From Reclinomonas americana ATCC 50394 (Eukaryota), in assembly GCA_048213135.1 (NCBI GenBank), contig PS015065.1, positions 20,863 to 77,554 on the forward strand: a stretch of 56,692 nt of DNA. Reading direction: 5' to 3'. Each line of letters begins with the position of its first letter. The stretch's first letter is position 1. The notes under the pieces are model-generated. The model was not told the DNA's origin. It was given only the letters and a program-made list of their open reading frames with translations, and did no database searches. Both the position numbers and the translations under genes were made by a program. This document shows positions 1,960 through 43,198 of this stretch, piece after piece.

Positions 1960-4900
1960 CTCAAACAGGCGCGCGAACTCGCTCTGGATACCCGAACGCC
2001 GACTCTCGTTGGCCTGCGCACACAAATTCACGTGAGTCATCACCAATAGCCAAGAAAAAGTACGCTGAAGACCACCGCACCACTCCATCCAAAAAGGCCT
2101 CGGCAATCGAGAAATCAACTTGCAATTGCAACGCGTAGGTGAGCGCACGCTGCGTGATGTTGCGCAGTCCCTGGTGTGTCACACGCAGGTTCGGCAGCAG
2201 TGCATTCACGAGGGTGTTGAGACCGAGTGGTGGAGTGCCCTGTGCATTTTTTGGATAAGCGCATCGCACAAAGAATTCACCCTTGAAGTGCAAGCACTCA
2301 CCAGCTGTTGCGCGTACTTGGCCATGGCCTTGACATGCGCCGTCGATAGGCATCGCACGTCCATGGCCGGATCGGAAATCAGCGGCACCAGACGCGGAAT
2401 CAACGTGTCCTGGCATAGCGCCGCCAGCTCGGCCGCGTGAGGCAAATCCTGCACGCACGTCCACCCTTCCGTAAACAACACATGGCATTCTCGCACACTC
2501 CCCGAAAACTCACCTGCGACACGCGGAATGTCGCATGCTTGACCGTCTCCTTGGTGGTCTGTGCGCCAATCAGTCGCAGGCGCTCTGAGCGGCTGCCGAG
2601 CAGATTCAGCAGCAGTGCCGACAAGTCGGCCGACCACGAGCTGTCCTCAAAGATGAACTCGGGGTTGCGGCTGACAATAAAGAACTTGCCGAGCAGGATG
2701 CCGGCCAGCAGTAGCGTGTCCTCGTCGGACGACGACGCCACGTCGAACACGTACTCACTGCAGCGATTCGGTTGCATGAGTACATGGTGAATGGCAGCGC
2801 AGCACGACACGGGTGCCCACACTCACCGCAGAGAGCGACGCAATCGCGGTCCGCCGAGGATATGCACCGCCGCACCAAACACGCCCAGCACGTAGCCACG
2901 CACATCGACCTTGCCGTAATCAAACATGGAGGTGCACGTGTCGACCAGCTCCTCCAGCACCGGTGGCGAGGCCGACGTACCAATCTCCGACAGCGCAATC
3001 TCGGTGGCCTCCAGGATCGACTGCACAGGCAGGGATGAGAGGCCACAAAAAAATCACTGTACTGCTGTGGTCAACGAACCCGCACGATCGGCTGCGACTC
3101 GGTCGACTCCTTCAGCTTGCGAGTCAAGTTGTTCAGCAGCGAGTCCGCCTTGACACTCTCCGGCAGGCTCTCGCACATTTGCCGAATGGCACCCACAGCA
3201 CGATCGCGCACCACGGCCGCCTCTGCAATAAAAAAATCGATAATTAGCATAATAACCTGTCACTTCCCCGTCAAACAGAGCCTTTCCCCACTCACCCTGC
3301 AAGCCCTTCATGAATGTCGTCTGCAACTGCGGCACCGAGCGCTTGATCTCATCGCTCGCGCGCGCAATCAGCTCGGAAATGGTCAACAGCACGTGCGCCT
3401 TCGGTTCCGGCGCAAAGTCCTTGCTGAACACGAACATCAGGCGACTCGTGATGGCAAACGCGCACTTGCGCAGCGCACTCTCGCCGCACGCCTGGTAACA
3501 GGCACACAAACGAGAGCGTAAGAATGCACGCAAACTCTATTCAACCAGCCAGCAGAGGTGTGCGTACCTCCAGCAACTCGCCAATGCCGTACACAGCATG
3601 CTCGCGAACTCGCGATGTGGAACCGTGCACCATGGCATGCAAGTAGATGGGGTACAGCGGCTCGAGACCAGTCTGCAACTTGAGACCCTCCAGCACGCGC
3701 GACGATTCCTGACCCCTGATGCTTGCAGTGTGAGTGGCTTGTCGCACAGCACACACGAAAATAGTCAAGTAACGCACTGGAAGCACAGGGCGTGAATCTC
3801 CTCCTGGATGATCTCAATGTGCTGTGCAAGCTCGTCCTTCTCGACCGTTGCACCCAGCGCATTGAGAACGGCCAGCGCCGCTTCGTTTACCTGCAGCGAC
3901 GATGTGCAGTGAGCAACACGCCGAAGCATACATCAGCGCGTCCACACAGAGACGCAACTCTCTCGTCGGGATCGTTGAACGCGCGCAGAGTGACCACCAA
4001 AATGATTGGCAAGTGTGGTCTGTACATGTCCAAGTTGCCCGCAGCGGTCCACTCGAGCATGCGCACAATGGCAATGCGCCGGCCAGACTGCACCACGGGT
4101 GTCAAATGACATTGCCCTGCATGCATACTGCAAACAAAGCACACATACCTTGTTCTGCTGCAACTCCTCGTTCGCCTCCTCCACCAAGTCACCCACGCAC
4201 TCCGTGTTCAACGAACACACGATGCGTCGGCCGCACGACATAATAACATCGACGTCGGCCCCTGGTCTGTCGACCGAGCTCGCCACCGTGGTCACCATGG
4301 CCGGCAAGATGGTCGGCATGTGCGAGACCAGCGCGTTGGGTGCGCTTTCGGCCACCACAGCCAGCGTTTGCATCTTGGAGGCGTCGAGCACCTCCTTGTC
4401 CAGCAAACGCGGCAGCAGGTAGGCCAGCACGGCAGCGGCGCGAGAGCGCAGCAGCTGCTGCAGTCCGCGGCGGGCGGTATCGACGCCATTGATGACGTCC
4501 GAGATCAGCGTCGGCAACACCTCCTCCATGATGCGCACACCAATGGCCTTGTTCAGCGCCGTGAACAGCTCGGCCGCGGCCTTTTGAATCTGTGAAATGT
4601 GTGAGAACGCTGGTTCTCGCCACTGCACAACGAGGACTCGTCACGAAACGTCGCTGTTCTCGGAGCAAATCGAATCGCGCAGCACCGGCACCACATCCTT
4701 CAGCAGTGAAGGTACGTGGCGCTTGGCGTTGCGGACGAGCTCAGTGAGACCGAGGCAAGCGCCCTGGCGAGTGGGAATGTCGCGGTCGCGTGAGGCGCGC
4801 ACCAGAGCCGGCACGAGGTCGGGAATAATGTGCTCCGGCATCTTGACCACCAGCTCGGCAATCGTTCGACCGGCCATGTGTGTGCGTTCCTGCCAGCACA

Positions 4901-7900
4901 TGACATACATGTTGGTGAGACACCAGCCACAGGCGGGCAACGCAGACGGACACACAAACCTCCGACGCCGTGGCAATGCCGGCCACCATGGGCATGCCGT
5001 CGGGACCGTACACGACACGAATGCCAGAGGAGCCATCGTCGGGCTCCGCCGGCTCATCGTCCGAATCGCCGTCCTCGTCACTGCCCTCGCCGTCTTCGTC
5101 TTTCGGTGCCTTCTCGACATGCACACACATACAGTCGTGAGAAACAACCCAATCGGTGGCATCCGCTGCACAAGCGAAGAGATAGCACACACCGGTGAAT
5201 CGACAAAGTTCGAGAGAAGAATGTCGGGTGACATTGAAAGCGAGGCCACGAGAAGCTGCGTGAGTTGCGGCAGGATCGCGCGGACCATGCGCGGCGTGTT
5301 GTCCACCAGCATGTGCCACACGTGATGGGCGGCCTGGGCCACCGGCGGCTGCACGTCCGCATGCAGCATGTACAGCGTGCTCAGCAGCATGTGCAGGCGC
5401 TCCTGGCCCATTTGCTGCGTCAGCGTGTCCATGTCGTTGCTCGAGCTGCGCGTGTTTGCCATCAGGTCGTTGATGTCCTCGAACTCCTTCGGCTCCTTGC
5501 TGCGGTGCAACACCTGGGCCAGCAGGTCGCCGAGCAGGGTGACTGACGCGACGCGGATCTTCCAGTTGTCCTCCAACAAGTTCTTCTCCAGACGCGGCAA
5601 AATGACCATGAACGACGACTGGCCGTGCGCATCGACAATGACTTGGCCAGCCTTGAGAGCGGTGGCGCGCACCGACTCTGCATGGTGGATGAGACACAGA
5701 TTCTGTGGACACACACAAATAGGAAGCATCGTCAAACCTTGTTCGTCGGAGAGACCGACCAGCACCTCGGGCAGCACGCGCGGCAAAAAGTCGAGGAACT
5801 CGTCCTTGAGCGCCAACGGCAGGTACGCCAGCACCTGCAAGTGCGCCTCGCGCACCGACGGCACTGGGTCGCGAGTGTTCTCCAAAATGTCGGGCAGCAG
5901 CTGCTCCAGACGAGCAAGGCCTGGCGACGGAGAAGAAATGTGAGCACTGCAGAATCGACGAGAGCATTCGTATACATGACAGCAACAAACCGATAGCCAC
6001 CGTGACCTCGCAGAAGCCCTGGGCGGCACCGGAGCGGTCCGAAGCGTTGGTGTGATCCTTTCGCAATTGCTCCAACAGCCAGTCGAGCAGTGACGGGAAC
6101 GAGGACTCGCCAAGTCCGTGCACCAACTCGCCGAGTGCTGCGAGAGCGCACAGCTATCACTATCCTGAAAGGAGACAACAGGAAAACAAAAAACATACCA
6201 CGCGCAGCAATAGCTCGCACATCGGGCACTGGATCCACCAGCGCCGCCTTCAGCGGCTCCACCACACTCTCCAGATACGGCACCATATCTTGCGTCTGCG
6301 TAATCAGTGTGCTCATGCTGCCCACCACCTGCACGCACATAGTGCGTTAGTGGATCGTATTGTACGTGCCACTCTGCGCATGACACGCACCTGCGCAGCC
6401 TTGCGTTTCACTTCCGTGCTGCGATCCTTCAGCGCGCGAATGAGTAGCGGCATGATGAGCGCCAGCGACGGCGCATCAATCGTGTGGATGAAGCGAATTG
6501 AGAGCAGAATGTCGAGGGCGCGCTTGGTATGATCGGCTGCGGAAACACGCCATAGTCAGTTGCTTGTCGCGATCATGCCACGCACCACCACCACAATAAT
6601 CGACAACGTACCTGGGTTACTGACGGCGTCGATCAAGGCAGGCACGTGCGCCTGAATCTCCGGATTGCCGACCACACCACCGACACGCCGCAGCGCCTCC
6701 TTGGCGTACGAAGCGACTTCTGGGTGCGAGTCCTTGGAGGCTGTGGCCAGTGGCGGCACCAACGTGGGCAGGCAAGCAGACAGCTGCTTGGGAGCGCAGT
6801 AGGCCATGGCACCCATCATCTCAATGGCACCCTGTATTCCGCCGACATTGGGTGAGTGGCTTGGGTAGTGAAGGAAACGAAGATGGCTGGAGTGAGAGAC
6901 AACGCAACGCATTTCGAGCGCCACGACTTGTCCTCGACGCCGCGCAGCAGAATCGGCACAATCATCTTCACGCCGTGCACTGACAGATTGCTCATGAGAA
7001 CGCGCACAGTGTCCTCGCTGGCCTCGCGAATCGCATTCGACGGGTCGCCACGCGCCGCCAAAATGTGCGGCAACAGCGGCATGATGAACGGCTCAAACAG
7101 CTGCTTGAGCACGCGGGACAGGCACTCGACGGCCATCAGGGCACCCTCCTTGGCCGCCAGCGTCTTTTCGCGCAAACTCTTCTCCAGGTACTGTGAGGGG
7201 GAGGCAATCATGGGGTGTGAGAGACGGGTGGTGGCAAATGTTGGGCGTCTTCTTGCCACTCACATCCAAAATTTCCATGTTCTTCAGCGACATGTAACCC
7301 ATGCCCTTGACCAGACCGGCCAGACCGAAAGCGGCACCACGGCGCGCGGGATATGAGTCTGTGTTGCGAGTTGGTGAGATTCGGTGGTGTGTGGGAGGGA
7401 ACAGGGCTGAGGGAGAAAGAAGGAGAAAGGGAAAGGGAGAGGGGGAGAAGGGGGAAGGAAAGGGGGAGGGAAAAGGGGGAAGGAACCGGGCCGGCGGGGG
7501 GGGGGGGGGGGTAGGGGTAGGAGGAGACGACGAAACGAAACGAACGACGACGACGACGACGACGACGACGAAGAAGTGCGTAGAACTAAACAAGNNNNNN
7601 NNNNNNNNNNNNNNNNNNNNNNNNNNNNNNNNNNNNNNNNNNNNNNNNNNNNNNNNNNNNNNNNNNNNNNNNNNNNNNNNNNNNNNNNNNNNNNNNNNNN
7701 NNNNNNNNNNNNNNNNNNNNNNNNNNNNNNNNNNNNNNNNNNNNNNNNNNNNNNNNNNNNNNNNNNNNNNNNNNNNNNNNNNNNNNNNNNNNNNNNNNNN
7801 NNNNNNNNNNNNNNNNNNNNNNNNNNNNNNNNNNNNNNNNNNNNNNNNNNNNNNNNNNNNNNNNNNNNNNNNNNNNNNNNNNNNNNNNNNNNNNNNNNNN

Positions 7901-10900
7901 NNNNNNNNNNNNNNNNNNNNNNNNNNNNNNNNNNNNNNNNNNNNNNNNNNNNNNNNNNNNNNNNNNNNNNNNNNNNNNNNNNNNNNNNNNNNNNNNNNNN
8001 NNNNNNNNNNNNNNNNNNNNNNNNNNNNNNNNNNNNNNNNNNNNNNNNNNNNNNNNNNNNNNNNNNNNNNNNNNNNNNNNNNNNNNNNNNNNNNNNNNNN
8101 NNNNNNNNNNNNNNNNNNNNNNNNNNNNNNNNNNNNNNNNNNNNNNNNNNNNNNNNNNNNNNNNNNNNNNNNNNNNNNNNNNNNNNNNNNNNNNNNNNNN
8201 NNNNNNNNNNNNNNNNNNNNNNNNNNNNNNNNNNNNNNNNNNNNNNNNNNNNNNNNNNNNNNNNNNNNNNNNNNNNNNNNNNNNNNNNNNNNNNNNNNNN
8301 NNNNNNNNNNNNNNNNNNNNNNNNNNNNNNNNNNNNNNNNNNNNNNNNNNNNNNNNNNNNNNNNNNNNNNNNNGGGTGGGAGAGCGTGAGAGGAGAGGAG
8401 AGAGAGAGAGAGAGGAGGAGGAGGAGGAGGAGGAGGAGGAGGAGGAGGACGCGGAGGGGGGGGGGGGTTGGAAAAGTGAGACTGACCAAAAAAGACACCG
8501 AGCACATGCGCAGCGAAAGATGCTGATAACAATGGACAAATAATGCAAGACTTCGCATCCACGTAGAGGAGTAACAAGGACACAAGCAGACGCACTCACA
8601 CCTCGCAACCTGGACTCAACTCTCTCCCTCCCCTTCCCCTCTTCTCCCTCTCTATCTCCCACCCAACGCACCACCCGACGACAGCGTGGCAAACAAGCGC
8701 TTCAGAACTTGCGCCGCTCGCGATGACACGGCAGACGCCGTCATCAGCGGCGACATGCACAGCGCCACTTGCGTCTGCACGTCCTGACTGGGCGTGCCCA
8801 ACGCATCGAGCAGGCGGCTGAAGATGGCCCACACCTACAACAAGTGAAATAAGTGAGCTCATTGCAGCCGCCCTTCGCTTTCCTTCCATCGCACCTTGTC
8901 ACTGTCGCCGTCCAAGTGAATGGCCAGACTGCCGAGGAATACCACCACGCTGCTGACTGCAAAATCGGAGCCGCGGTCCGGACCATCCAGGAACATTTCA
9001 AAGAGCGGCAGCAGCAACGCCACATTCTGTCGGCCGTGCTCCTTGATGTGCTTTTGACCGGCCTGCACGTACGAATCACGTGAGTCGACGCATCGAGTAT
9101 GTTGATAACGGCACAGGCCACACGAACCTCCACCATGCGCTCGCGCACCAACGCGCTCTTGTCAAAGAGCGCCTTGGAGATGAAGAACGTGAAGAGCACC
9201 GGCAGGTTGGCCGGCGTCAAGGCGCGCGGCAGTTCGGCCAACACAGAGGCAATGCCGACACGCGCATGCTCCTCCGTGTCCTGCGCGAACTGCGCCAACG
9301 AGCCTTCCATGATTGGCAGCTGGTGGGGGAATACAACTGGGTGAGTTTGCGTGAGCACTCAGTGAATGGCAGGACGGACACGCAAGACCTTTTCCGTGTA
9401 CAGGGCAAACAGGCGGGAGAGGGTGGCGCCGGCTGTCTCTGGGTACTCGCCGAGAGCACGCAAAAACGCTTGACCGACAAGGGTGCGGATCGAGTCCTCG
9501 CGCGTGCCCATCAAAATGTCGAGCAGCACCGAGCAGTAGTCGGTGGCTAATGCTGGGCGTGAGAGACCAACAACAACACACGCACGACGACAAGGAGGAG
9601 CGACGGACGCAACTCAGCGGCTTGCCATACTGTCGCCACACTTGCTGGGCCGCATCGGCCGCATGAACGTCACGCTCGCCGCACGCCAGCCACAAGCGAA
9701 TGTGGAAGAGGTGCAGCGACGATGGCACCTTTTGCTCCACGCCGGTCAAGTCGTCCTCGTTGACCTCGTCGGCACGACCAAACACTCGCAGACCCACAGC
9801 CGCAGTGGTGCGCACATGCTGTTGGGCACTGAGGAGGCTGGAGAGGAACGGCTCCAGTGCGTTGAGCGTCGGTGCCAGGTTCTGCGCCAGTGCGAGCAGG
9901 CACCAGCGAGCGCGTGGATGCAGCATGGGAATACCGGCAGACAGCACGTGGAAGAGTGTCTTGCAAGCGGCCTTGGGGAACGGGAAGTTCTCCCACTCCA
10001 CATGCAACGCAAGGGCGTCGAGCACGGCCTGGTGCTCCGGCACACCCCAGTGGCCTACAAATTCAAACAAGGGTGTTCAGAAAGCAGCAGTGAGGCGTTC
10101 GGAAGCGGCAAATGCGCGCACCGAGCAAAATAGTCTCCAGCAGCGGGTACGTGATAGTGAATGGAATGTACTCCATCTGGTTGAGGGCAGTCATCTTCTC
10201 GAACACAACGGCCAACATCTCCGGCTCCGAGTCCTGCAGCACAAGGCCAAGGATGGTGAGGACAGTGCGAAGGGAATAGAAGAATGAGGGAGGGAACTCA
10301 CCGACTCGCATCGCGTGTCGTCGAGCTTGTCGCCGACCAAGCTGCATATCCACGTGGTGAGCAGTTAGTCGCGTAAGACACATGTGACACAAAGACGTAC
10401 CGAATGAGCAAGCGCACGACCAGTTCGAGGAACGGTGCCACCCATCCTTGCACCGACGCCAAATGCAACAACATGGCCGCCGCACGCTTGTGCAGGAACG
10501 GTGACGACAACTGGTGCACGGCCATGTCGACCAGCGTCGTCATGAACGGCTTGAGGATGCCGGGCACTGAGCGGACAATGAAGCCGAGTGCCTGCACATT
10601 CACACTGCAAGTGTGAAACAAAAAGTATTGCTGACAATCAGGATGCAACGAACACACCTCCAACACGGCGCCAGCGCGGTCGGCAGCAGCCAGAATCGGG
10701 CGACGGATCTCGGCCTCCTCGGCACGCACTTGCTCAATCAGCTTCTCCAGACGAGCTTCGGGAGTCTGTGTATATTCAATCAACACAATCAGCGCCATGT
10801 TCACCGCAACACGGCTGAAAAAGGCGCGCGAACGCAACATCTCCACGCTTGCGGGCCTGCTCGCGACGAATCTCGGCCTCCCACGCATCGTCCTGTAAAT

Positions 10901-18335: not shown

Positions 18336-20902
18336 AATAGAGAGACGAAAGAGAAAGAAAGAGAGCAGGAGAAAGAGAGAGACGAAAGAGAAAGAAAGAG
18401 AGCAGGAGAAAGAGAGAAACACTTTTGATTGAAACTCACACTCTCACGAACTCTCTTTCTCTCGCATACACACACACACACTCTCTCACACACACATACA
18501 CACACAGCTGTCTCTGCTCATTCTTTCTGGGGTGGGAGATGCATTGTATCACTATTTTGTTGTGATTGTCACATTTGAGCATCTCAGTCAGTGGCTCATT
18601 TGTTGTGATTGTGGGGAATGCAGTGTTCTTGCGCGTGGCGGATGCACCGTGGCGATTGCGCTTGCGCATGGCAGCTTCTTGGTCGACGGTCTGCGCCCGT
18701 ATGAGGTGAGGTTTGCGTGGCTTGATTTGGTCTCTCTCTCCTCTTGCTGTATCAGTGTGGCCGTGACGGATCCTTTGTTCTCATTGCTCTCACTCCGTTG
18801 TCGACCATTCGTTCTTCTTCTTCTCCTTTCCCTCTTGCCCTCCTCCCCGTGTTATCTACGCTGTCTCCATAACACGCACATTGACTGAGCCTTTGTTCTA
18901 ATTCCTTGGTCTTCGTTACTTCGTCTCCTTCATCTTCTCCCGCTCCCCTTGCTCAACGCTGTCTCCATCTTTGTCAGATTCGACCACGACTGACCATGCA
19001 TTGTCACTCCTTCGTCTTCGTTACTTAGTCTTCCTTTCTATCTCCTCTCGCTGTGTTGCCTCTTACCCTCCCCTGGGTCAACACTCTCTTCATCTTGTCA
19101 CACCCACACTCTGACTGATCCTTTGTTCTCACTCCTCGCACTCATTTGTCTTCCTTCTCCTGCTGTCTTGTCTGCCCTTGCCCTCTTCCTCAGTCGCCTT
19201 CTCTTCTTCTCCTTTGTCTTCCTTTACTATTGCATTTACGTGTTCTTCTCCCCTCGCTGGTTTGCCTCTTGCGCACCTTCCACTGTCATCCACGCTGTCT
19301 CAATCTTTGTCACATTCGCACTCTCATTGATCCCCTGCTCACTCGTTTGTCTTCCATTTCTTCTGCACCTTCATCTTCTCCTTCCCCTCTTCCTCCCTCT
19401 TGTCCCCCCCTCACCCTGCCCCTTCTCTCACTCCTTCCCCTCTTGCTCTCCTTCCCCTCACCCCTCTCCTTCCCCTCCCCTCCCCCACCCTCCCAGATCG
19501 AAGAATGGCTCGAGTTCGCCAACACCGAGTTCAGCCGCGAGGAGTCGCTGATGATGTCGGCCATTCGCTTCAACCACCAGCTGCAGTTCCGCACCTTTGT
19601 GGGCGGCGATGGCTCGCGTCTCACGCTGTTCGATTTGCTGGTGCTGCAAGTGCTGCGCAGTTGCGTCTTTTTCTTGTCTATGATCGGTGTTCACAACATC
19701 TCACCCGTCACACAAAACGCAGACAACCGCCTCACCATGGGGCTGGTGCGCCGCTTCGGCAACAGCCTGCCGCACTTTGCGCGCTGGTTCGAATCGATCG
19801 ACGCCATGCCGCTGGCCGTCGAGAGTTTCACCAACCTCGTGAAGATGTTGCGTTCTTATCCTCCACTCCCGCTTGTGCCTCGCCTCACCTCTCCTCTTCC
19901 GACAGCCTGAAGGGCCAGGGTGTGGTGCTGAAAAAGTCCGCGGACACCACCACGACGGCCGTGTCGGCTGCGCGTGCCGAGGAGGCTGGCGACGTGTCGC
20001 TGCCGAACGCTGAGATTGGCAAGGTTGTCACGCGTTTCCCCCCAGAGGCCTCTGGCTACATGCACATTGGGCACGCCAAGGCCGCGCTCATCAACAACTA
20101 CTTTGCCAAGAAGTACAAGGGACGCATGATTCTCCGCTTCGACGACACCAATCCCAGCAAGGAGAAGGTGAGGGAGACTATATGTGCGTGTGTGTGTGCT
20201 AAGAGAAAAATGTGAAATGCTCACAACTCTACACGAACAGGGCGAATTCGAGGAGGCCATTCGCGAGGATCTCGGCCGCCTGGAAATCATTCCCGATCAC
20301 ATTTCGCACACCAGCGATCACTTTGAGTTGATTCTTGGTCTGTGCGAGCGTCTGCTGCAGGAGGGCAAGGCCTACGTGGATGCGACGCCGGTGGCCGAGG
20401 TGAGAGGGAGGGAATGGGGTGGTAGAAGATTATGATGTCATTGCTGCCGTGGGATTGGTGTCGATCGTGCCCAGGTTTTCTGAAGTGCGCGCAAGTGTGA
20501 CTAACATGCTCTATCTCTTCCGCAGATGCGTGCCCAGCGCGACGCCGGTATCGAGAACGCCTACCGCTCGCAGCCGGTCGCCGAGAATCTGCGCCTGTGG
20601 ACCGAGATGCAAAAGGCCTCGGAGGAGGTGTGCAATACTGTGCGCGCTTGTGCATCTCGCCTCTCTGCAAGTCACTAACGCACTCCTTCTCGCACACAGG
20701 GTCTCAAGTGCTGCGTGCGCATGAAGATCTCGATGACGGTGCCGAACAAGGCGCTGCGTGATCCTGTGATGTACCGCTGCAACTTGACGCCGCACATGCA
20801 CACGGGCGAGCGCTACAAGGTGTACCCGACCTACGATTTTGCCTGCCCCATTGTCGACTCGTACGAGGGTGTGACGCACGCTCTGCGCACGAGGTGAGCA
20901 GC

Positions 20903-20937
<35 letters not shown>

Positions 20938-22765
20938 GAGTGGGTGAGTGAGAGAGGGAGAGAACGCAAAAGTGTTGCTTTGCGATGGCATCATGCTGAC
21001 GAAGGTCGTGCGCAGCGAGTACTCGGATCGCGACCCGATCTACTACTGGGTCATTGAAGCTCTCGGCATCCGCAAGCCGATTTTGTGGGAGTTCAGGTTT
21101 GTCGATGAGCGGCGATGCGTTCCAACCACCCACATCTCGTCGCTAACGCCCCTGTGAACCACTGCAGCCGCCTGAATTTCGTCCGCACTGTCATGTCGAA
21201 GCGTAAGCTGCAGTGGTTTGTCGACGAGCACATTGTCGACGGCTGGAACGATCCGCGCTTCCCGACTGTCCAGGGTGCGTCATTTGTGTGTGTGTCGCAG
21301 TGTGTTGTTGGTAAGTAGCGACTGACGCGTGTGTGCAAACAGGCCTGCTGCGCCGCGGTCTCACGGTGCCGGCACTCCGCGACTTTGTGCTGGTGGCACA
21401 GGGCGCCTCCAAGGTTTGTCACACAAAAGGTGCATGCCGTGTGTTTTTTCTGTTATGCTCACACTTTCTGCTCTTTGTTGTCGCACAGAACACCAACCTC
21501 ATGCGGTGCGTCCTTAAACCTCGTCTCTTTGAAACTGTTCTCCCGTGCATCGCCTCACCGCTTATCCTCTTGCGCGCAGCTGGGAGAAACTGTGGACCTT
21601 CAACAAGCAGGCCATTGACCCGATTGTGCCGCGTCACACGGCCGTCGCACGCGACGCCAAGGTGGCACTGGTGCTGTCGGATGTCCCGCAGGCCGTGGTC
21701 ATCAAGGACGTGCCGCGCCACAAGAAGAACCCGTCGCTCGGCAACAAGCGCACCGCCTACTGCAACCGTGTGTGGCTCGATCGTGCTGATGCCGACAACC
21801 TGCAGAATGGCGAGGAGGTCACGCTGATGGTGAGTGGATTGAAAGGGAATGGGGTTGGCTGTGCATCCGTGCTGTTTTATTTCTTGCTATTGTTCTTCTT
21901 GTTCGTGTTCTTGTTCCTTCTTCTTCCTCTCCTCCTCCTCACTCTTCTTCTTGTGCCTCATCACCGTAATCTTCTGTTTTTCCCGCCCTCCTCCTCCTCT
22001 TCTGCCTCTTCTTCTTCTTCGTCCTCCTTCTCTCCTCTTCGTCTTCTCCTTCATCTTCTTCTTGTTCTCCTCCCTATTCCTCCACTTTCTGCTTTTCTCC
22101 TTCTCATCTTTCCTCTTCCTCCTTCTCGCCCTCTCCACCTCCTCTTATTGTCCTCCCACTTCCTCCTCACTCTTCTTCTTGTTCCTGATCACCATAATCT
22201 TCTCCTTCTCCTTCCTCTTCTCCTTCCTGTTCCCCACCATCTCATCTCCTCCCTTCCACAGGACTGGGGCAACGCCGTGATCGACCTCATTGTGCGCGAC
22301 GACGCTGGCCAAATCAGCGAGCTGCACGGCCACTTGCACCTGGAGGGCGACGTCAAGATCACCAAGTGGAAGCTGACGTGGCTGGCCGACGTGCCGGATC
22401 TGGTGCCGGCCACCCTCGTCTCCTACGACCACATTATCACGGCCGACAGCATCCCGCCGGATGAGGACTTTGAGAAGTTTGTGAACCGCAACAGCCGCAC
22501 CGAGCTCGCCGCCCTGTGCGACGCCAACACGCGCGAGCTTCGTCACGGCGAGCGCCTGCAGCTCGAACGCCGCGGCTTCTTCATTGTCGATCGCGCCGCG
22601 GGCGAGGGCGGTCTCGTGCTGGTCGAGATCCCCGACGGCCGCCTGGCGAAGGGTGAGGAGGCGCGCCCGTCTGCTGGCTCCGCCGCCGATGCTCGTCCGT
22701 CGCGCAAGGAGCTGAAGCGTCAGGCGCACAAGGCCGGTGAGGGTGGCAAGAAGGTCGGAAAGTGA
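18075..22765 (+). CDS. Cytoplasmic glutamyl-tRNA synthetase (stand-alone, with a likely GST-like N-terminal domain), multi-exon
   Basis: [21 protein letters not shown] (HIGH), [25 protein letters not shown] (KMSKS-type), [29 protein letters not shown] at 22763-22765 with no ProRS fusion. Start codon is tentative. Confidence 0.95.
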
Positions 22766-31350: not shown

Positions 31351-34300
31351 ATGGAGGTCGTGCCCCAGCCGACGGCTGCAGTCACCTCCTATTCTGCTGC
31401 AGGTTTGCACGACTGAGTAATCTTGGAGTCCGTTGCGAATGATGCCAAGCGTGGATGATGTGCGCAGACAGCCGTCATTCACCATCACCGCTCATCGCTC
31501 GCACCGTGAATCCTGTGACCACATTCCGCTTCCCGAGTCGGCGTGCGCTGGCCGCCACATTCGCCACACGCATTGCGGATGCTGTGGAAGGTTGGTGTTT
31601 CTTTTCTGCCTTCGCAGCGTTTGTGTGTCGCATGGTGATGATGCTTCTTGCGCAGCACATCAGCCAATCATGGTGGTTCTGACGGGCGCCGGTGGCACCG
31701 GCAAATCGTTCCTGGCCGAGTTGCTGGTGACCGAGCTGCAAGACACTCGGCGATGGAGCGGATCGGCCGTGTCGGTGGAGATGCGCGGTCATGTGGGGGA
31801 TGCGGGGGAACATGTAAAGGTGAGACTGAAATGCGTGTTTGGCTGCGTGTACTTTGCTTGCCCTTCCTCATCACAGCGCAGGCGGAGAGTGCAGTGAGCC
31901 AGTGCCTTCGGTCATTCGTAGCCGCGCAGATGCGCGTGGACGAAGCAGAGGGACGGCGCATGGCCACGCAAGTGGACGCGCTGCTGGCGAGTGGTGAACT
32001 GAACGCGGCACACCGTCTCTTGTGCCAGCTAATGCACGCGTCGAGTGGAGTGCTGGTGTTGGACAGTGTGGGATCGGTGGAGCAAGTGATGGATGTCGTG
32101 CGAGTGGGAGGTGTGGATGGTGAGTCACTCCAGATTCTCCTCTCCTTCCTTTCTTTCCAGTGTTGCTTGGTACTGATTTTCTGCGTGCTCCAGACGAGTG
32201 CGTGGCCCCGATCGTGGTGGTGACTAGTCGACATGGACGAGTGGCCGATGAGATCCGTGGTGATTTGCTGGCGCAAGCAGTTGAAGTGGAGTGTGTGCCA
32301 GTGGCGAGCGTGGAGAATGAGGATATTGAGCAGGTCGTGGAGGAGCGACTGTGCGATGTCGTGGCAGCTGATGTGCGTCGGCGGATCGTACGGGTGCTCA
32401 AGGGTGGAGAGCAGCAGGCAAAGAGTGCGCTGCGAGTAAGTACCTGTGTCGGGTGAGTGACTGCTTGCATGCGATTCGCGAAGGATTATTCATTGGGTCC
32501 TTCTGTGCTGTTTGTGACACAGCTGGCTGCTGTCACAGTCACCTGCAGAGTTGGCGCGAGCGCCACTGGAGGAGGTGCTCAGTGCCGTCGGTGGCGAAGC
32601 ACTGTCGCAGCTACTGGAACACAATGTGATGGCGCAGACGGCGATGGCACGTCGCCTGTTGGTGCTGATGACGGCATGCAAAGGCCTCGGGCTACCAGTG
32701 ACAACGACCCTCGCACGAGTGGCTGTGCGCTTGCTGCGAGTGATTCCTGATCTGACGGCGGATGCCGCCGACATGGCAGTGGAGATCGAAGAGGCCTCTG
32801 CAAGTCGACTGGTGACATTGAGTCGACTTGTACGCCGACTGCGGCTGCATGAGCTGGCAGGGGAGAGGCGACGACGAGCACCTGATTTTGTGGGCGAGCG
32901 ACTGCAGTTTGACGAGATGAGCGAGGAGGAGGAGCAGCGAGCTCGCGCCCAGCTCGACGAGTTGGTGGTGGGTGGTGGTGCGGACGACAGCAGAAGCGAG
33001 GATGTGGAGCATGTGCTGGCCAGCTTGGGCGTGTCACATTTGACGACGGCGCGAGTCGGCAGTTGCATGGACAGTGTGGCGCACGTGCTGTGCGGGTGGC
33101 ACGTGCGAGAAGGCAACGAGGTGACAGAGTATCGTGTACACGACGAGATTGCCGCATGGATGGTGGAACGGTGCGGAGACGCGGTGTTGTGGACGCAGCG
33201 ACAAATGGTGCGGCTGGTGTGTGGCTTGCTAAACAGCGTTGACTTTCAGAACGACAGCGACGGTGTGTTGTTGGTGTCACGTGAACTGCTGTGTGTGTTG
33301 CACGCCGTGTGGCGACAGTTGAGTGCTGACGATGGCATGTGGACGTGCGAAGCAGTCGGCGTGCACACGGCGCTGGTGCAGTGTGGGGCGCTGGAGTGGA
33401 TCAGTGAGCAGATTGTGAGAGGCGACCTTCCCTCACGTGGTTTCGACGTGGCACTGGCTTGGACGCTGGTACAACACATGAGAGAGGCAAAGCCGCCGCC
33501 GTGTGCGCTCGGTGCTGCTGCAGCGTGGCAATTACTGCTGATCGTGAAAGCGAGGTGTAGGGCATTGTTGATGGATATCCTCGGCCAATGGAATGACGTG
33601 CGTTCCGCGTGGCAATTGGTGCATGATCTGTGCGAAACATGGAAGAGGGAGCGAGGTGACGAGATGACGGCGCTGGACGTCATAGACACACTGCGCAGCT
33701 TGATGCGCTTTGCATACTACCTTGACAGTCTACCGCGGTTGACTGAGTGCCATGAGCGGCAGTGTGCGACGTTGGGCGAGAGCCACCCAGACTCATTAGC
33801 CACGCTGTTTTGGCAGGCGCGGTACCACTACAACCACGAGTGCTACGCAGATGCTGAAGCGCTCTATCGAAAGTGCTGGGAGTTGCGACGGCGCATTCAC
33901 GGAGTATATCACCCCGATACTCTGCTGTCGATGGGCAATTGCACCGCGTGTATCCAAGACGCGAGTCGCTTGGACGAGAGAATTCGGCTTGAACGCGAGT
34001 GTCTGTCGCTGAGTCGGATGGCGTTGGGAGTGCGGCATCCAAGCACGCTTCTGTTGATGAGCAATCTGGCTGTGCCGCTCCAGCAGCAGGGCACAGTGCA
34101 AGCACTCGCTGATGCTGCTGAATTGTGTCGCGAGTGCTTGGTGGCGCGTCGCGAGCTTTTGGGTGACAGGCATACCGACACTCTGGGGGTGTTGTGCAAC
34201 TATGGCACTGTTCTTGTGACGCAGTGTCGGTGGGCGGAGGCAGAGACAGTGCTGGTGGAGTGCGTGGATGGTTATCGGGCGGTGCTGGGGGACCGCGATC

Positions 34301-34425
34301 CGTGTACGATGACTGCGTTGCGATGGTTGTACGAGTGTCGAGGTCGGCGGTCGCGAGAGCAAGATCGGCAGCAGAGTGGATCGGAGGACAGCTCGCCAGC
34401 GGAGGGCGGTTGCTGTGTGTTGTGA
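31351..34425 (+). CDS. STAND-class NTPase with C-terminal kinesin-light-chain-type TPRs and a CaaX terminus (NLR-like); start uncertain
   Basis: VVLTGAGGTGKS (Walker A), VLVLDSV (Walker B), VVVTSR, YRVHDEI (MHD-like); five repeats of LGxxHPxT type; ends GGCCVL*. Confidence 0.75.
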
Positions 34426-36988: not shown

Positions 36989-38867
36989 CTGTCTCTCTCT
37001 CTCTCTCTCTTTCGTGTTTGTTATGACTGAGCCGTTCCTTTTACCTTAATCTCTCATTCTCTCCCACTCATGCTCACACTCTTGCACCTTGTACTCTCTC
37101 TCTCTCTCATACGCGGCCCACGCAGTCATCGCTCCGGCACGGTGAGCGACGAGCATGGCGACCGTGTACGGTCAGCAAACGTCGACTTCTTTCGAGGAGA
37201 ATACATGCCGAGAGATATTCCTCTCCTGGAGAACTTGCCGGCAGTGGAAGAAACAATGCCTGTGCGTGGAACAACAACAACTGCCGACGATGGCAGTGGC
37301 ACTCAGAATGCAGCCCTCCGATCGACGATGCTTTGCGTTCTCTCTCGCCATCCGGACCTGCACAAGTCGATGCACCAGGCTTGTAGGAACTGGTGGATGC
37401 TGGCGGCGCACATGGATCGCCGTAGGTGGCCGTCGTTGATGACCGCCTTCTGTCTGACCACCGAGTGGTCAATGTCGCTGTTCGTGGTCACACATGGTGC
37501 CAGTGATGTGGAGCGACTGGAGACGCTGCCGTTTGCTTGGTTGCCGTCGCCGTCATCGGCGGTGATGCGGGAGATGAACGCCGCTCGCGAGTGTCTGCCA
37601 CAGCTGAACATCTCGATTGTCGGCATGTGGAACATGACGCCACAGGGCGACTACCCACCAACAGTGCAGGTCGACTTTTGTGGACGCCAATGTGAGTTGC
37701 TGATTGCACGCACTGTTGTGGCTCATGTGCGAAGACCGTATGACAGCTGTGCGTGTGTGTGTGCACAGTTGGGGATCGAGAGTCGATGTTTGCGGCCCTT
37801 GCCGGTGTGGTGACCTTGTGTAGGGAGGGTGTGACGGATCTGCAGTCTTCACCCGACCACCACATTCTGGAGGCACTGAAGAAAGAAGAAGGTGAGACAC
37901 TCACAAGGAGAGTCGCCTCTGCTGGTGAACTGCTTTCATCACTTGACTCGTTTGTTGATGACACAGAGAGTGCTGAGACTCCGAGGCCGCCTGCGGTTAC
38001 TGCTGCAAACCGGGAGCAGCAGCCTTCATTCGGCACTACGATGTTCGTAAAGAGCTGCCACTCGTGGCGCGAAGCGAGCCGAGAGATGCGTGTGCTGGAA
38101 GAGCTGCGACGCACAGCGTCGCCGGCCGTGCAACTGCGGCTGCCGACACCGATTCGTGTGGACGAAGCGGACTTGTGGTTGCAGCTGCTGCCGAACGATC
38201 ACGTGCACACCATCGAGGATCTGCGGATCGTGGTACGCGATGTGGCGACGGCGCTGCACCATGCACACACCAACGGGTGGGCACACTTGGATGTGAAGCC
38301 GGCCAACATCATGTACAGTCGACACGAGGTGGCGACACTGATCGACTGGGATCTGGCGCGGTCGCTGCGTGATCGGCAGCGCGGATCAGAGTGGATCGGA
38401 ACGCGCCGGTTCATGGTGAGTGGTGAAGGTGTGTTGGGTGCGACACAAAACTCATTGCATGGTCGATCGCAGTCTCCGGAGGCGATCGGCGTCGATCCGT
38501 TTGAGGAGAGCAACTTCCCACCGGGCGGCAAGGCGGACATGTGGAGTCTGGGAGCGACGATTGCCTGTTACATGGTGGACGAGTTCGGCGTCGTGGTCGA
38601 CCCGTTGTGTCACCCGATCGAGCAGGCGGCTGCGGCTGTGGAGGCGGTGCGGGAGTGTGCGCAGGCGCACCCGGGCGAAGACGGATACGCGGAAGTGGTG
38701 GAGCTTGTGGAGTGGCTGATGGAGTTCTGGCCGGCGGACCGACCGACGGCGGAGCAGGTGTTGGAGCATCGCTTTTGTGCGAACGATGGCGAGGATGGCG
38801 AGGGCGAGGGTGGTGAANNNNNNNNNNNNNNNNNNNNGGCGGTGAGGGAGAAGTCGGTGCCGGGTGA
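34620..38867 (+). CDS. CR-type REase + protein kinase effector-like protein with duplicated N-terminal helical exons
   Basis: Spliced RIDSG..VLFIECK (PD-(D/E)XK); kinase motifs MFVK, AHLDVKPANI, LIDWDLA, GTRRFMSPE, DMWSLG, RPTAEQVLEH; a small gap near the 3' end. Confidence 0.7.
34961..35535 (+). repeat. Tandem exon duplication (exons 34967-35149 and 35323-35511, with flanking intron sequence)
   Basis: Both exons encode PENDDDVRTLE..LLxDVAxRAxxAGNNILAxNCFARxxAL..LIxVLKAT and are followed by gtgagc..aattctctttc. Confidence 0.9.
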
Positions 38868-38989
38868 AGGCGCATGTGCACACAAGTATGCCTCGCGAAC
38901 ATACTCGTACACTCACACATGTACGTGCAACCATTCCTGATCTGGAGCAGTGTATGATTCGTGCCCCTCGTTCATTTCTTCACGCTTCA

Positions 38990-40557
38990 TCACCGGAAGA
39001 CTCGGCGCCATCCCGTGCGCGCGTGAAGGGAGCCGTCCTTCACGGTGTTCTCGGCGGCGTACAGCCGCACGCTCCATCGGTAACGTGACTCCTGGGAGCA
39101 CAAGCCATGGTCCACGGCGGCGTCGACGAGATTGGCGAAGGTGGTGACGCAGCTGAGGACGTCGTCGGCATCGTATTCTTCGCGGTGTGAGGCCCAGTTG
39201 CGGCATTCGCGAGCGGCTTCGATGGCAGTGCGCTACAAAGAGGAGGAGAGTGAGGGGGTACAGTTTTACCGAAGGGAAGAAGAGCGAGAGAACACGCACG
39301 AGACTGGGTTTGCGCACGAGATCTTGCGTGACGCCGGGCTCGAGGGCGCCATTGGGCATTTTGAGCGACAGTAGAATGGAGGCCAGCGCGGAGAGATCAA
39401 AGGAACTCAGCGCCATCAGGTCTTGCTCCTGATCGGACTCGAGCAGACTCAAGCCACGCAGGAGCGCGACAGCAGAGGCAGCTTGCGAACGACGCGGCAT
39501 GCTGAGACAATTCACGCTAACATCGGTGAGATTCACGCGACCGTGCCGCTTCGGGTTGGAGAAGAACTTGCGAAGTCGGCAGAGGAGGATCTCCTGCATG
39601 CATGGCGTGCCGACAGTGTGCAAAGACCAGAACCAGGCTGCTGCGAAGCCCCTGTAAGTGGGGAGTCGGGAGAGAGGGATTGAGTGCAAGAGGACAGTCT
39701 TCAACGTTGACGGAACCCGTCATAACAACACACATTCGCGCTGTTTCGGCTGCGGGTGGTGCGCGTGGCAGTGTCGACAGCAGTGTGGCAGTGATGAGGA
39801 TATAACTGCGAGTATTACCAGGTCAGCACGTGCACAGAGAAGGTGGCGGCGCGAGGGAGGTAGAGACAGAGTGCAGCGAACACCAGATATATAGGGACAG
39901 ACAGAGTGAGAGACAGAGCGACAACCACACGTATACGTACTTCGGAAGGAAGAAGCAGAGTCGTTCCACGATGAACAGACAGGCCAGCTCGTTAGACGTG
40001 GCAATCGACTCCCAGTTCATGGCTGCCTGCTCGCCCGCCCAGCGTGAGAGCTCGTACGTGCACAAAGAGCGAGAGTGATTACACCCACCGGAATGTCAAT
40101 GATGGTCCAAGAGGCGGTGGCGCACAAGAGAAGCGTGGCGCAGCACAGGTGAATGAAGGGACGAAGGAGGAACTTGCCGCGACGACGGCTGGTGACAACC
40201 ATGTTGCGCAGTGTATTCCAGAAGCCATACGTGGCTAGCACACCGCANNNNNNNNNNNNNNNNNNNNNNNNNNNNNNNNNNNNNNNNNNNNNNNNNNNNN
40301 NNNNNNNNNNNNNNNNNNNNNNNNNNNNNNNNNNNNNNNNNNNNNNNNNNNNNNNNNNNNNNNNNNNNNNNNNNNNNNNNNNNNNNNNNNNNNNNNNNNC
40401 ACACACACACCGGCTGCCACCGCGTGCCATTGCTCCGATTGTGAATGTCCCTGTAAGAACCCGCCAGCGACAAGCAGTTGTCTGGCATCGACTCAGCTGT
40501 GGTGAGGTCAGCCAGCAGCTTCACCAGACTTCCCGGACGAGCCTCATGATGCACCAT
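38990..40557 (-). CDS. Transmembrane protein with C-terminal HEPN-like domain (paralog A); gap in the 5' part, start tentative
   Basis: Hydrophobic segments FIHLCCATLLLCATASWTII and LACLFIVERLCFFLPNYILITATLL; then TVGTPCMQEIL, FDLSALASIL, ARECRNWASH (39185-39202). Confidence 0.65.
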
Positions 40558-40979
40558 CACACTCTCCGCTCTCCCCCTGTGTGTGTGTTCGTGCGTGTGT
40601 GTGTCTGTGTGCACATGTGCAAGCCGCGGAAAGAAACTGGTGATTCGGACAAATCCGACGACACTACGAGTGTCGCGCTCGAGTGTACTTTTCCGGATTC
40701 CAGTGTCGAGGGGAGAGAGAACAAAGAAAAGGCCGCGCAGTTCGTTCTGCGTCTTTTTGCATGTCATACACCCGTCGAAGTCAACGCGTACTGCGGACAC
40801 TGCAAACTCGCATGCCGTGTTTGTTCCTGTCGCGTCAATACATACAGAAAGTCGGTTGCAGCAAGGGAGTCAGTGCGAGAACCAAAGCTGTCAGGTGTCG
40901 TCCTGTTTGTCTGGGAGAGCGCGTACATCGTTCGAATTCACCATTTGAAGTGCGCAATACTGTTTTTAATTCCAAGGAC

Positions 40980-43198
40980 ATGTCGCGCCAAAGCTGGTCG
41001 AGTGTGCTTCTCGTTGCACTCGTGGTGTTGCTGCTGGTCAGCAGAGGGGCGAACGCAGATCTGGAGTCGCACGCGTGTCAGGAAATTGCGGGATCGAGAA
41101 ACAATTCACTTCCGGTTGGTTGCGCTGTGCGCATGCCGCCGTGTTTTGAATTCTGTCTTGTGTGAGTCGCCTCATTCTCTCTCTCTCTCTCTGGTTGTGA
41201 CAGCTGATCTACATTGATGAGGGTGGTGGTGGTGTTGGGCTGGGAGGTTTGCGTGCATGCGAAGACGAATGCGCAGATTGTGTGTGTGAGAGAGCTCCTC
41301 ACACCTTCTGAGACGCAGGCATGGCAATTACCAACTTGGTCTGGCTGGGCATCAACATACTCATGGCCATCTTTTCGGTCTGCCTTCGTTGTCCCTGTCG
41401 CGATCCTCTGTGGTGCTGATGCGCAAGTGCACGCAGGTCACGCAATTGCATCAACGTGCCGTCACGCTGAAGAAGCGCTCCGGTGCGTGTGTCTCGTGCT
41501 GCTCATTGTTGCTTGCTTGCCTCCTCCTCCTCCTCTCTCTTTCTCTCTCTCTCTCTTTCTCTCTCTCTCNNNNNNNNNNNNNNNNNNNNNNNNNNNNNNN
41601 NNNNNNNNNNNNNNNNNNNNNNNNNNNNNNNNNNNNNNNNNNNNNNNNNNNNNNNNNNNNNNNNNNNNNNNNNNNNNNNNNNNNNNNNNNNNNNNNNNNN
41701 NNNNNNNNNNNNNNNNNNNNNNNNNNNNNNNNNNNNNNNNNNNNNNNNNNNNNNNNNNNNNNNNNNNNNNNNNNNNNNNNNNNNNNNNNNNNNNNNNNNN
41801 NNNNNNNNNNNNNNNNNNNNNNNNNNNNNNNNNNNNNNNNNNNNNNNNNNNNNNNNNNNNNNNNNNNNNNNNNNNNNNNNNNNNNNNNNNNNNNNNNNNN
41901 NNNNNNNNNNNNNNNNNNNNNNNNNNNNNNNNNNNNNNNNNNNNNNNNNNNNNNNNNNNNNNNNNNNNNNNNNNNNNNNNNNNNNNNNNNNNNNNNNNNN
42001 NNNNNNNNNNNNNNNNNNNNNNNNNNNNNNNNNNNNNNNNNNNNNNNNNNNNNNNCTCGTTCACTCACCCCCTCCTTCCCCCCATGACGTGGCCAAGTCG
42101 GCAGTCGGATGGATGGATGGCGCCAAGTCCGAGGTCCTGGCCTGCATCTTTGTGGTGGAGCGCCTGTGTTTCTTCCTGCCTGGGTACATTCTCATTACCC
42201 TCATGCTGCTCTCGACACTGCCGCCGGCACCACCACCGAATGTCATGGCGAAGATGTTGCGCGGGGTTTGCAGCGTGCAGATCTTGAGGAGGATGACTGA
42301 CGATTCACTCTGCGCGCAGGGCCAACATGATGACATGGCTGTGGTGTGTCAATGCGACGTGTGCGCCGTGCTTGCGACAAATACTGGTGTCGAGTCTGCG
42401 ACAGTTTGACAGGGAGCACCGAGACGCCGGTTTCCGCTTGCAGGATATTGACTTTGGGTCGGAGAGGTGCGTGGCGATCGCGTGGGAGAGATGGGAGAGG
42501 GGAAGTGTCTGATCGAAACGAGGCGTGAGTGCCTGCAGATTCATGGCAATGGAGAGTGGCCAGCGACGGCGGTTGCAGTTGCCTGTGGGCAATCTCACGG
42601 CGTTGTCGGCGTGCTTGCAAGAACTGACGCTTGGCGACTCGCCTGAGGCGAGGGCTGCGGACATGGAGACGCTGGAGGAGCTGGATATTACAACGTTGAG
42701 CACGGTGCTGCTGTACTTTTACTATCGGAGGGATGCGCAAGATGCGATGTCGGCGCAGGCATTGGTGGCGGATCCGCTGATCGTTACGCGGAGGGGGAGC
42801 GATGGTGGTCTTCCTAAAGCTTGCTGTCTCTCTCTCTCTCTCTCTCTCGCTGCTTGTCTTCTCACTCGCCCTGTTTTTTCTCGCGCGCCACTTATCCAGA
42901 TCCGCTGACTCACCACGCACCACCCGCCATGCAGAGACAAGCCATTGACGCCATACGTGTCTCGCGCAACGTGGTTCGCCATGCTACAGCGCTCTCCGTG
43001 GAGCACAATCAGTTGATTCAGTTCATCCGCAACTCGCACACGCTGGTGAACCTGGCCTTCACTCTGCATCTGTGCGAATTGGCGTGCAAGAATCGATGGA
43101 TGGCATGTCTGCACACGGCAGAGCTTGCGGTGCAGGAGACTGACGAGGATCAGGAGGAGGCGGTAGTGAGGCGGAAGGGGTGTGCGGAATGGTGCTGA
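40980..43198 (+). CDS. Signal-peptide + transmembrane protein with C-terminal HEPN-like domain (paralog B); gap 41570-42055
   Basis: MSRQSWSSVLLVALVVLLLVSRGANA; LVWLGINILMAIF; LACIFVVERLCFFLPGYILITLMLL; ATCAPCLRQIL, LDITTLSTVLL, IRVSRNVVRH (42965-42982). Confidence 0.65.

Follow-up and report, generated by a model that had tools for sequence, protein, structure and literature searches.

A head-to-head pair of orphan paralogs with a conserved hydrophobic N-terminus and a possible HEPN-type domain in Reclinomonas americana

The stretch of contig PS015065.1 considered here (Reclinomonas americana ATCC 50394, assembly GCA_048213135.1, positions 20,863 to 77,554 of the forward strand; 56,692 nucleotides (nt), hereafter the window) comes from the nuclear genome of a eukaryote rich in introns, has a GC content of about 55-60% and contains many masked repeats. 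It harbors two four-exon genes placed head to head, paralog A (minus strand, 40020 to 38990) and paralog B (plus strand, 42113 to 43198), whose spliced products are about 248 and 265 amino acids (aa) long. An earlier note on this DNA took them for membrane-anchored receptors or effectors with HEPN-like RNase domains, and the locus thus raises the question of whether both are real genes, whether their products reach a membrane, and whether they end in a HEPN nuclease. The best explanation is that A and B are anciently duplicated, divergently transcribed and constrained orphan genes, and the best single reading of their products, which is put forward tentatively, is that of a membrane-tethered, highly divergent HEPN-type RNase.

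The similarity between A and B is at the protein level. The spliced products share 81 of 245 residues (33%) in blastp (E=3e-36), and their global alignment scores 281, compared with a mean of 10.6, a standard deviation of 5.8 and a maximum of 48 among 300 shuffles, which bears out the paralogous, divergent pair of the earlier note. The two loci give four colinear tblastx blocks with a joint E of 3.3e-19, and the five motif pairs quoted beforehand are all found at the place given for them in A and B, within ORF fragments of both strands: LACLFIVERLCFFLP / LACIFVVERLCFFLP, YILITxxLLSTLP, FDLSALASIL / LDITTLSTVL, RTAIEAARECRNWASH / RQAIDAIRVSRNVVRH and RW..L..AE..V. At the nucleotide level, blastn finds only two coding blocks, which are 50 and 44 nt long and 75-76% identical, the remaining matches being one of 24 nt in low-complexity sequence and four weak ones of 12-25 nt (E 0.21), and no sequence is shared between the introns of A and those of B. 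Nei-Gojobori estimates of non-synonymous (dN) and synonymous (dS) change are 0.27 and 1.5 in the N-terminal block and 0.84 and about 2.3, the latter saturated, in the rest of the proteins, so that non-synonymous change stays well under saturated synonymous change. A third copy was not found in the window, where tblastn with three models gave one stray match (E 0.7).

The predicted gene models (Table 1) were assembled from tblastx blocks and GT-AG sites. Each intron edge was then moved within +/-75 nt, and the resulting product was rated by its similarity to that of the paralog. The boundaries chosen are top-scoring for introns 1 and 3 of both genes; exon 1 of A, which encodes the first half of the conserved hydrophobic segment, scores 281 vs at most 265, and exon 1 of B 281 vs 208 for the runner-up. 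An alternative donor, GTAAAA at 39269, would lengthen A exon 3 by 10 residues and leave a 37-nt third intron, which was rejected with a homology score of 261 vs 281 for the 67-nt intron. The A intron 2 and B intron 2 junctions are uncertain by a few codons: in the former three options are near-equal (281-283), the 3' boundary of exon 2 being one of three within 2 score units, and in the latter all six listed alternatives score 288-295 vs 281 for the boundaries chosen. An in-frame stop lies 25 codons 5' of the A start codon, at 40096-40098, and the B start codon is taken to be the first in-frame ATG past an N run.

Two intron positions are common to both genes. The first, in phase 2 after A[RK]M, had already been noticed and is confirmed, being unambiguous in B (42256-42319) and one of three near-equal options in A (39733-39652); the second, in phase 0, lies immediately 5' of R[TQ]AI[ED]A (A 39299-39233, B 42783-42934). 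Each gene has in addition one private intron, inside FFLP/N/YILIT in A (39940-39806) and at about 42467-42538 in B. The predicted introns are 64-152 nt long, with the donors GTACGT, GTGTGT, GTGCGT (twice), GTTGCG and GTTACG, and in four of the six a branch-like CT[GC]AC motif occurs within the last 30 nt. Six introns of the Glu/Gln-tRNA synthetase (GluRS) gene of the window, placed by homology, fall in the same size range and have CT[GCA]AC motifs, and their donors are GTGAGG, GTGAGC, GTTTGT (twice) and GTGCGT (twice), the last of which is also the donor of A exon 3. Codon positions 1/2/3 have GC fractions of 0.61/0.49/0.72 (A) and 0.59/0.43/0.73 (B), compared with 0.63/0.42/0.78 in the GluRS segments and 0.69/0.44/0.76 in the kinase domain next to A; both this measure and the splice signals agree with the neighboring genes of the window.

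It could be argued that A and B are non-functional, as decayed duplicates or chance open reading frames (ORFs), since no homologue was found in the databases searched, the gene models are without RNA evidence, and the recognition score of B in the ESM Atlas is low. However, the frames are open over four exons in both copies with matching intron positions, dN is far below saturated dS, codon-position GC is gene-like and the splice signals are typical of the organism. This explanation is therefore very improbable, and A and B are with high confidence real coding paralogs.

The best-conserved part of both proteins is the N-terminal hydrophobic segment, with 62% identity over 51 aa. Kyte-Doolittle means over 19 residues reach 1.6 or more across residues 12-39 of A (starts 12-15 and 21; maximum 1.7) and residues 8-38 of B (starts 8-15 and 17-20; maximum 2.1), so that each protein has one N-terminal hydrophobic stretch, as would suit the transmembrane proteins proposed beforehand; in A only, one later helix (start 129) also exceeds this value. 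The segment, of about 28 residues and interrupted by E-R and by P-[NG], follows a short acidic N-terminus of about 11 residues in A and 7 in B, and from its sequence it is probably an uncleaved signal-anchor or a membrane hairpin; targeting of A and B to the membrane or the secretory pathway through this N-terminus is likely. Its flanks (N side/C side) carry charges of -2/+1 in A and -1/+1 in B. The positive-inside rule relates flank charge to membrane topology, and under it these values weakly favour a cytosolic C-terminal domain. A receptor, as the earlier note would have it, is unlikely, because the residues ahead of the anchor are too few to make up a sensor domain across the membrane. Past the segment the proteins are all-helical: a Pro-rich linker is followed by a W-x-W...P-C...I-L...L-R block, a variable stretch, a helix with two invariant Asp, a loop, and a block ending in R-N-x3-H.

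Two observations weigh against a nuclease tethered to the membrane and facing the cytosol. The hydrophobic core of A contains P and N and barely passes the threshold (1.7 vs 1.6), and both proteins have an N-L-T sequon (A residues 91-93, about 39533-39525 on the minus strand; B residues 115-117, about 42590-42598 on the plus strand), which would suit a luminal domain. The two sequons have a similar S..C-L context, yet automatic alignments put them in different columns; their homology would imply that about 25 residues were inserted ahead of the sequon in B. In an alternative reading, A and B would be secreted or luminal. Their hydrophobic stretch would then serve as a signal peptide or type II anchor, and the helical domain would work away from the cytosol, perhaps at the cell surface, in a vacuole or as an effector. 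The sequons speak for it, as do the cysteines (8 and 11) and a hydrophobic stretch that begins 8-12 residues from the start codon, but the N-flank is acidic, without a basic n-region, and the hydrophobic run is long, both of which are atypical of cleaved signal peptides, and the constraint on the segment is much above that on the rest of the protein, which is unusual for signal peptides. A luminal or secreted location is thus considered unlikely, and a membrane-tethered protein with a cytosolic domain is preferred.

According to PMC3710099, HEPN domains are built of two alpha-hairpins, an insert lying between helices 2 and 3, and carry an Rx4-6H motif in which a polar N, D or H comes right after R; the motif closes a helix, after which come a loop and a long helix, and an acidic residue of helix 2 is conserved, often as Ex3[KR] 'when present'. 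In the two proteins the motif is found at aligned positions, as R-N-W-A-S-H in A (residues 179-184) and R-N-V-V-R-H in B (residues 189-194), within the best-conserved C-terminal block, where 8 of 16 residues are identical. R[NDH]x3-5H occurs once per protein, and both occurrences agree with the Rx4-6H of HEPN domains. The two invariant Asp form part of D-[LM]-x2-L-x3-D-[LI]-x2-L, in a helix that would correspond to helix 2. An AlphaFold model of A exon 4 built on the two-sequence alignment (predicted local distance difference test, pLDDT, 80; predicted template modelling score, pTM, 0.62) has helices at residues 2-16, 22-41, 47-65 and 73-79. In this model, which covers that half-domain of A alone, the motif occupies residues 11-16 at the end of the first helix and is followed by a loop (17-21) and the helix 22-41, as is described for HEPN domains.

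Sub-threshold profile evidence points in the same direction. The Pfam, HMM-library and PDB searches were made on single exon pieces of A and B. Among 24,736 Pfam models the sole match to any of the six pieces is DUF4145, a member of the HEPN clan (PMC3710099), which covers the motif region of A exon 4 (residues 3-30 of the piece, aligned to profile positions 57-85 of 88; E=0.0035). In the ESM Atlas, where scores below 0.9 are leads only and the recognition mark is 2300, 9 of the 10 best named hits of A exon 4 lie within one family or clan; a HEPN_Swt1 cluster is at rank 4 (0.81) and a cluster with 10% HEPN_DZIP3 at rank 18 (0.77).

Several results weigh against a HEPN assignment. The DUF4145 score, 17.8 bits, is below the cut-off of 23.1 and rests on the same motif that prompted the HEPN idea; no HEPN profile (clan CL0291) reached its cut-off on the exon pieces of A and B, and those of B gave no Pfam HEPN match at E<=10. 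The Atlas scores of A (0.81, 0.77) are below 0.9, and B has no usable match there (recognition 1375). PADLOC, NCBIfam and PHROGs each gave 0 matches for 4 of 4 pieces, PDB sequence searches gave 0 at E<=10, and hmmsearch with a two-sequence exon-4 profile gave 0 at E<=0.001 among 1.84 billion representative proteins. Foldseek with the 80-residue model of A exon 4 found no match at E<=0.001 in PDB and BFVD; its top matches are generic helical bundles, and the two HEPN chains at rank 5 (1wwp_A, E 1.3) and rank 44 (8xeh_D) both have an E above 1. The AlphaFold model of the exon-3 piece is all-helical with a pLDDT of 45.7, so that a four-helix bundle was never seen, and the Ex3[KR] motif is absent from A and B. 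A complex prediction with the exon-3 and exon-4 pieces of A scored 0.00 and 0.01 vs a mark of 0.34, which, with the fold of the partner uncertain, weighs neither way.

These results lend themselves to another explanation, the principal one to be considered, in which A and B are lineage-specific, membrane-anchored helical proteins with a fold other than HEPN, and R-N-x3-H has a structural or binding role without RNase chemistry. It accounts for profile and fold searches without a significant HEPN match and for the lack of any signal from B in Pfam and the ESM Atlas. It also fits the fact that the hydrophobic N-terminus (62% over 51 aa, dN 0.27), and not the motif, is most conserved, by which the key function may be at the membrane. 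Motifs of the Rx4H type arise by chance, R[NDH]x3H being found in about 4.5% of shuffled versions of either protein. However, the motif is the sole R[NDH]x3-5H of each protein and has been kept at the aligned place across saturated divergence; in the A exon-4 model a helix ends with it and gives way to a loop and a long helix, an arrangement known from HEPN domains, and the single Pfam match among all models searched is to the HEPN clan and falls on the motif. A non-HEPN helical protein is consequently held to be rather improbable, though somewhat less so than a luminal one. For the HEPN fold of the C-terminal domain itself, judged from sequence and model, the arguments on the two sides are evenly balanced. 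Of the HEPN-like domain claimed beforehand, the R-N-x3-H in both proteins, the helix-end position modelled in A and the sub-threshold DUF4145 match stand, while no profile reached its threshold, B matched none and the Foldseek matches are non-specific. That A and B are active RNases is possible, but somewhat doubtful.

Relatives were also sought more widely. Comparison with longer proteins gave 74 word-sharing candidates for A exon 4, none at E<=0.01, and 8 for B exon 1, none at E<=1; in bacterial and archaeal genomes, 44 pattern matches for related loci included 0 confirmed, and tblastn against plasmids found nothing at E<=10. For a query of about 85 residues, about 40 bits are estimated to be necessary in a library of 1.84 billion proteins, so that only fairly close relatives are excluded. 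Orphan is used here in the sense that there is no fairly close relative elsewhere, as a domain that is both short and divergent does not reach the E-value limit in a library of that size. The proteome of the source organism is apparently absent from the protein collection, given that the best match of the GluRS ORF is only 52% identical. In the portion of the literature available, no description was found of a small, N-terminally anchored eukaryotic HEPN pair.

As for the type of HEPN domain that A and B might contain, both proteins have an acidic helix with D-[IL]-x-x-L some 45 residues before R-N-x3-H, a combination that the earlier note gives as the signature of DZIP3/Swt1-like HEPN RNases. 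The Atlas cluster with HEPN_DZIP3 is another lead towards the DZIP3/hRUL138-like HEPN family (PF18738), but the PF18738 profile is unmatched by the A and B exon pieces at E<=10. In Table 1 of PMC3710099, DZIP3-like HEPN domains are mainly animal, plus Capsaspora, and are fused to TPR, RING, NACHT, Death and other domains, without the N-terminal anchor that A and B have; among the matches listed in the literature on DZIP3 and HEPN, there are animals or general surveys only. The Swt1-like HEPN domain (PF18731) is the best named Atlas cluster for A exon 4, but its score is below 0.9, it has no Pfam match, and A and B lack a PIN domain. The proposed DZIP3/Swt1-like type is therefore not supported, with neither family matched in Pfam at E<=10 on the exon pieces and Atlas leads for A only.

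DUF4145 (PF13643) is found in bacteria, archaea and double-stranded DNA viruses, with some members fused to transmembrane segments, and PMC3710099 mentions membrane-associated DUF4145-like proteins whose HEPN domains are cytoplasmic. DUF4145 is the only Pfam model to touch the pair, on the motif region of A, but below threshold and with B unmatched; moreover, it is prokaryotic or viral, typically in restriction-modification contexts, whereas A and B are spliced eukaryotic genes whose anchor sequence is unrelated to anything found. The closest architecture described is that of C6orf70/ERMARD (DUF4209, PF13910), a eukaryotic, kinase-less HEPN protein with a single transmembrane segment that is predicted to act in RNA degradation at the endoplasmic reticulum membrane (PMC3710099) and whose history is said to reach back to the last eukaryotic common ancestor. 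The statement that such an architecture was not recognized among eukaryotes is hence superseded by this transmembrane-plus-HEPN family, from which A and B differ in having no DUF4209 Pfam match and no detectable relatives. Ire1 is a membrane-linked HEPN RNase activated by pairing, and the KEN domain of Ire1 and RNase L is kinase-fused and circularly permuted (PMC3710099, together with established knowledge for the former). Ire1 also has a luminal sensor, for which the 11 or fewer residues ahead of the anchor in A and B are too short, and neither spliced model contains a kinase or pseudokinase domain, which sets both apart from KEN proteins.

The spacer between the two start codons was described beforehand as a shared region of about 420 bp, but it is 2,092 bp long. 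The smaller figure is the gap between two stop-to-stop ORFs, 40096-40869 on the minus strand and 41290-42087 on the plus strand, which are lengthened by N runs and are not continuous with A and B, and which thus misled the estimate. A (CT)18 array lies at 41533-41569, and the spacer showed no paralogous upstream exons and no Pfam, Rfam or tRNA match. Upstream coding exons within it were rejected for want of inverted paralogy, because of the in-frame stop before the A start codon, and because candidate acceptors before the two start codons are at non-homologous positions. The window as a whole contains 13 N runs that mask about 3.6 kb (for example 1362-1959, 7595-8373, 41570-42055, 44712-45209 and 55033-55592); they are bordered by CT/GA and CA/TG microsatellites, and they lengthen stop-to-stop ORFs of the ORF track.

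To survey the genomic neighborhood, 134 of the window's 229 stop-to-stop ORF pieces at least 110 aa long were compared with Pfam. The adjacent gene, identified in a separate Pfam run as encoding a protein kinase, is tail to tail with A: its stop codon ends at 38940 and that of A at 38990, and a distance of 49 nt between the stops means that the 3' ends of the two genes must nearly touch or overlap. A fusion of A with this kinase was rejected, as the latter is on the opposite strand. About 4.5 kb from A, a Walker-A P-loop ORF and a TPR ORF (31421-34422) look, by their sequence, like one STAND NTPase-TPR (NLR-like) gene, for which 11 upstream ORF pieces showed no N-terminal effector domain. Farther away, the pieces at 4644-7259 are probably exons of a GCN1-like gene, and Pfam neighbors also include a uridine kinase fragment, Metallophos and WD40. 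Relative to its homologues, the GluRS gene has large in-frame insertions: a gap of 433 nt within one open frame separates the homologous block at 21829 from that at 22262, and 219 aa correspond to 153 in the alignment. Its best identity, among proteins of 719-2050 aa, is the 52% given above, to a Polytomella-like sequence, plants and green algae.

Table 1. Exons of paralogs A and B and other features of the window (positions count from the first letter of the window)
Feature	Position	Strand	Description
Paralog A, exon 1	39941..40020	-	ATG at 40020; ends 2 nt into codon 27; donor GTACGT
Paralog A, exon 2	39734..39805	-	YILIT...LLSTLP and Pro-rich linker; phase 2 end after ..ARM
Paralog A, exon 3	39300..39651	-	WxW..PC..IL..LR block, variable linker, D-rich helix with FDLSALASILL; donor GTGCGT at 39299
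Paralog A, exon 4	38990..39232	-	helical C-terminal piece; stop TGA 38992-38990; R-N-W-A-S-H encoded at 39202-39185
Spacer between start codons	40021..42112	.	2,092 bp, of which 638 masked N (40248-40399, 41570-42055)
Paralog B, exon 1	42113..42255	+	hydrophobic segment 42134-42226 and Pro-rich linker; phase 2 end after ..AKM; donor GTTGCG
Paralog B, exon 2	42320..42466	+	WxW..PC..IL..LR block; 3' boundary uncertain
Paralog B, exon 3	42539..42782	+	linker, helix with LDITTLSTVLL; donor GTTACG at 42783; boundary score 281 vs 268
Paralog B, exon 4	42935..43198	+	stop 43196-43198; R-N-V-V-R-H encoded at 42965-42982
Protein kinase ORF	37744-38940	+	Pkinase domain 37744-38817, E=2.8e-19; ORF crosses a 20-nt N run, 38818-38837
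TPR ORF, 635 aa	32518-34422	+	TPR_10 5.8e-18, TPR_12 1.7e-15
Walker-A P-loop ORF	31421-31894	+	sub-threshold AAA_16 1e-3, nSTAND3 8e-3, NPHP3_N 0.014, NACHT 0.14
Glu/Gln-tRNA synthetase (GluRS)	19331-22762	+	Pfam; at least 6 short introns of about 65-125 nt
GCN1/EF3-type HEAT repeats	4644-7259	-	several ORF pieces, HEAT and HEAT_EF3_N, E down to 4.8e-21

The model proposed for the membrane-tethered HEPN reading is that the last 130 or so residues of A and B most likely form a very divergent HEPN-type four-helix domain, in the order helix 1, helix 2 with the conserved Asp, a loop insert, helix 3 ending in R-N-x3-H, helix 4, and one extra helix. Each protein would act as a metal-independent endoribonuclease, held on an endomembrane so that the catalytic domain faces the cytosol, and it would become active only when two HEPN domains pair, either in homodimers or in an A-B heterodimer, so as to cut membrane-proximal RNA in a stress or conflict response. 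A fuller version of this model, in which the pair represents a new eukaryotic family of kinase-less, sensor-less HEPN RNases with an unusually conserved hairpin or anchor, a divergent pair with a heterodimeric composite active site resembling that of the two HEPN domains of Cas13 or of the Ire1 back-to-back dimer, acting as a membrane-proximal immune or stress effector and possibly linked to the nearby kinase and STAND-TPR gene, is speculative and, taken as a whole, unlikely.

If the HEPN assignment is wrong, the locus still provides two constrained orphan genes with an exceptionally conserved hydrophobic N-terminus, which would be a modest gain in annotation. If it is right, A and B would represent a third eukaryotic route to a membrane-placed HEPN RNase, after Ire1 and C6orf70, one that needs neither a kinase nor a luminal sensor, in a lineage whose proteome lies outside the public protein sets searched. 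The pair would then be a compact system for asking whether diverged HEPN paralogs are obligate heterodimers.

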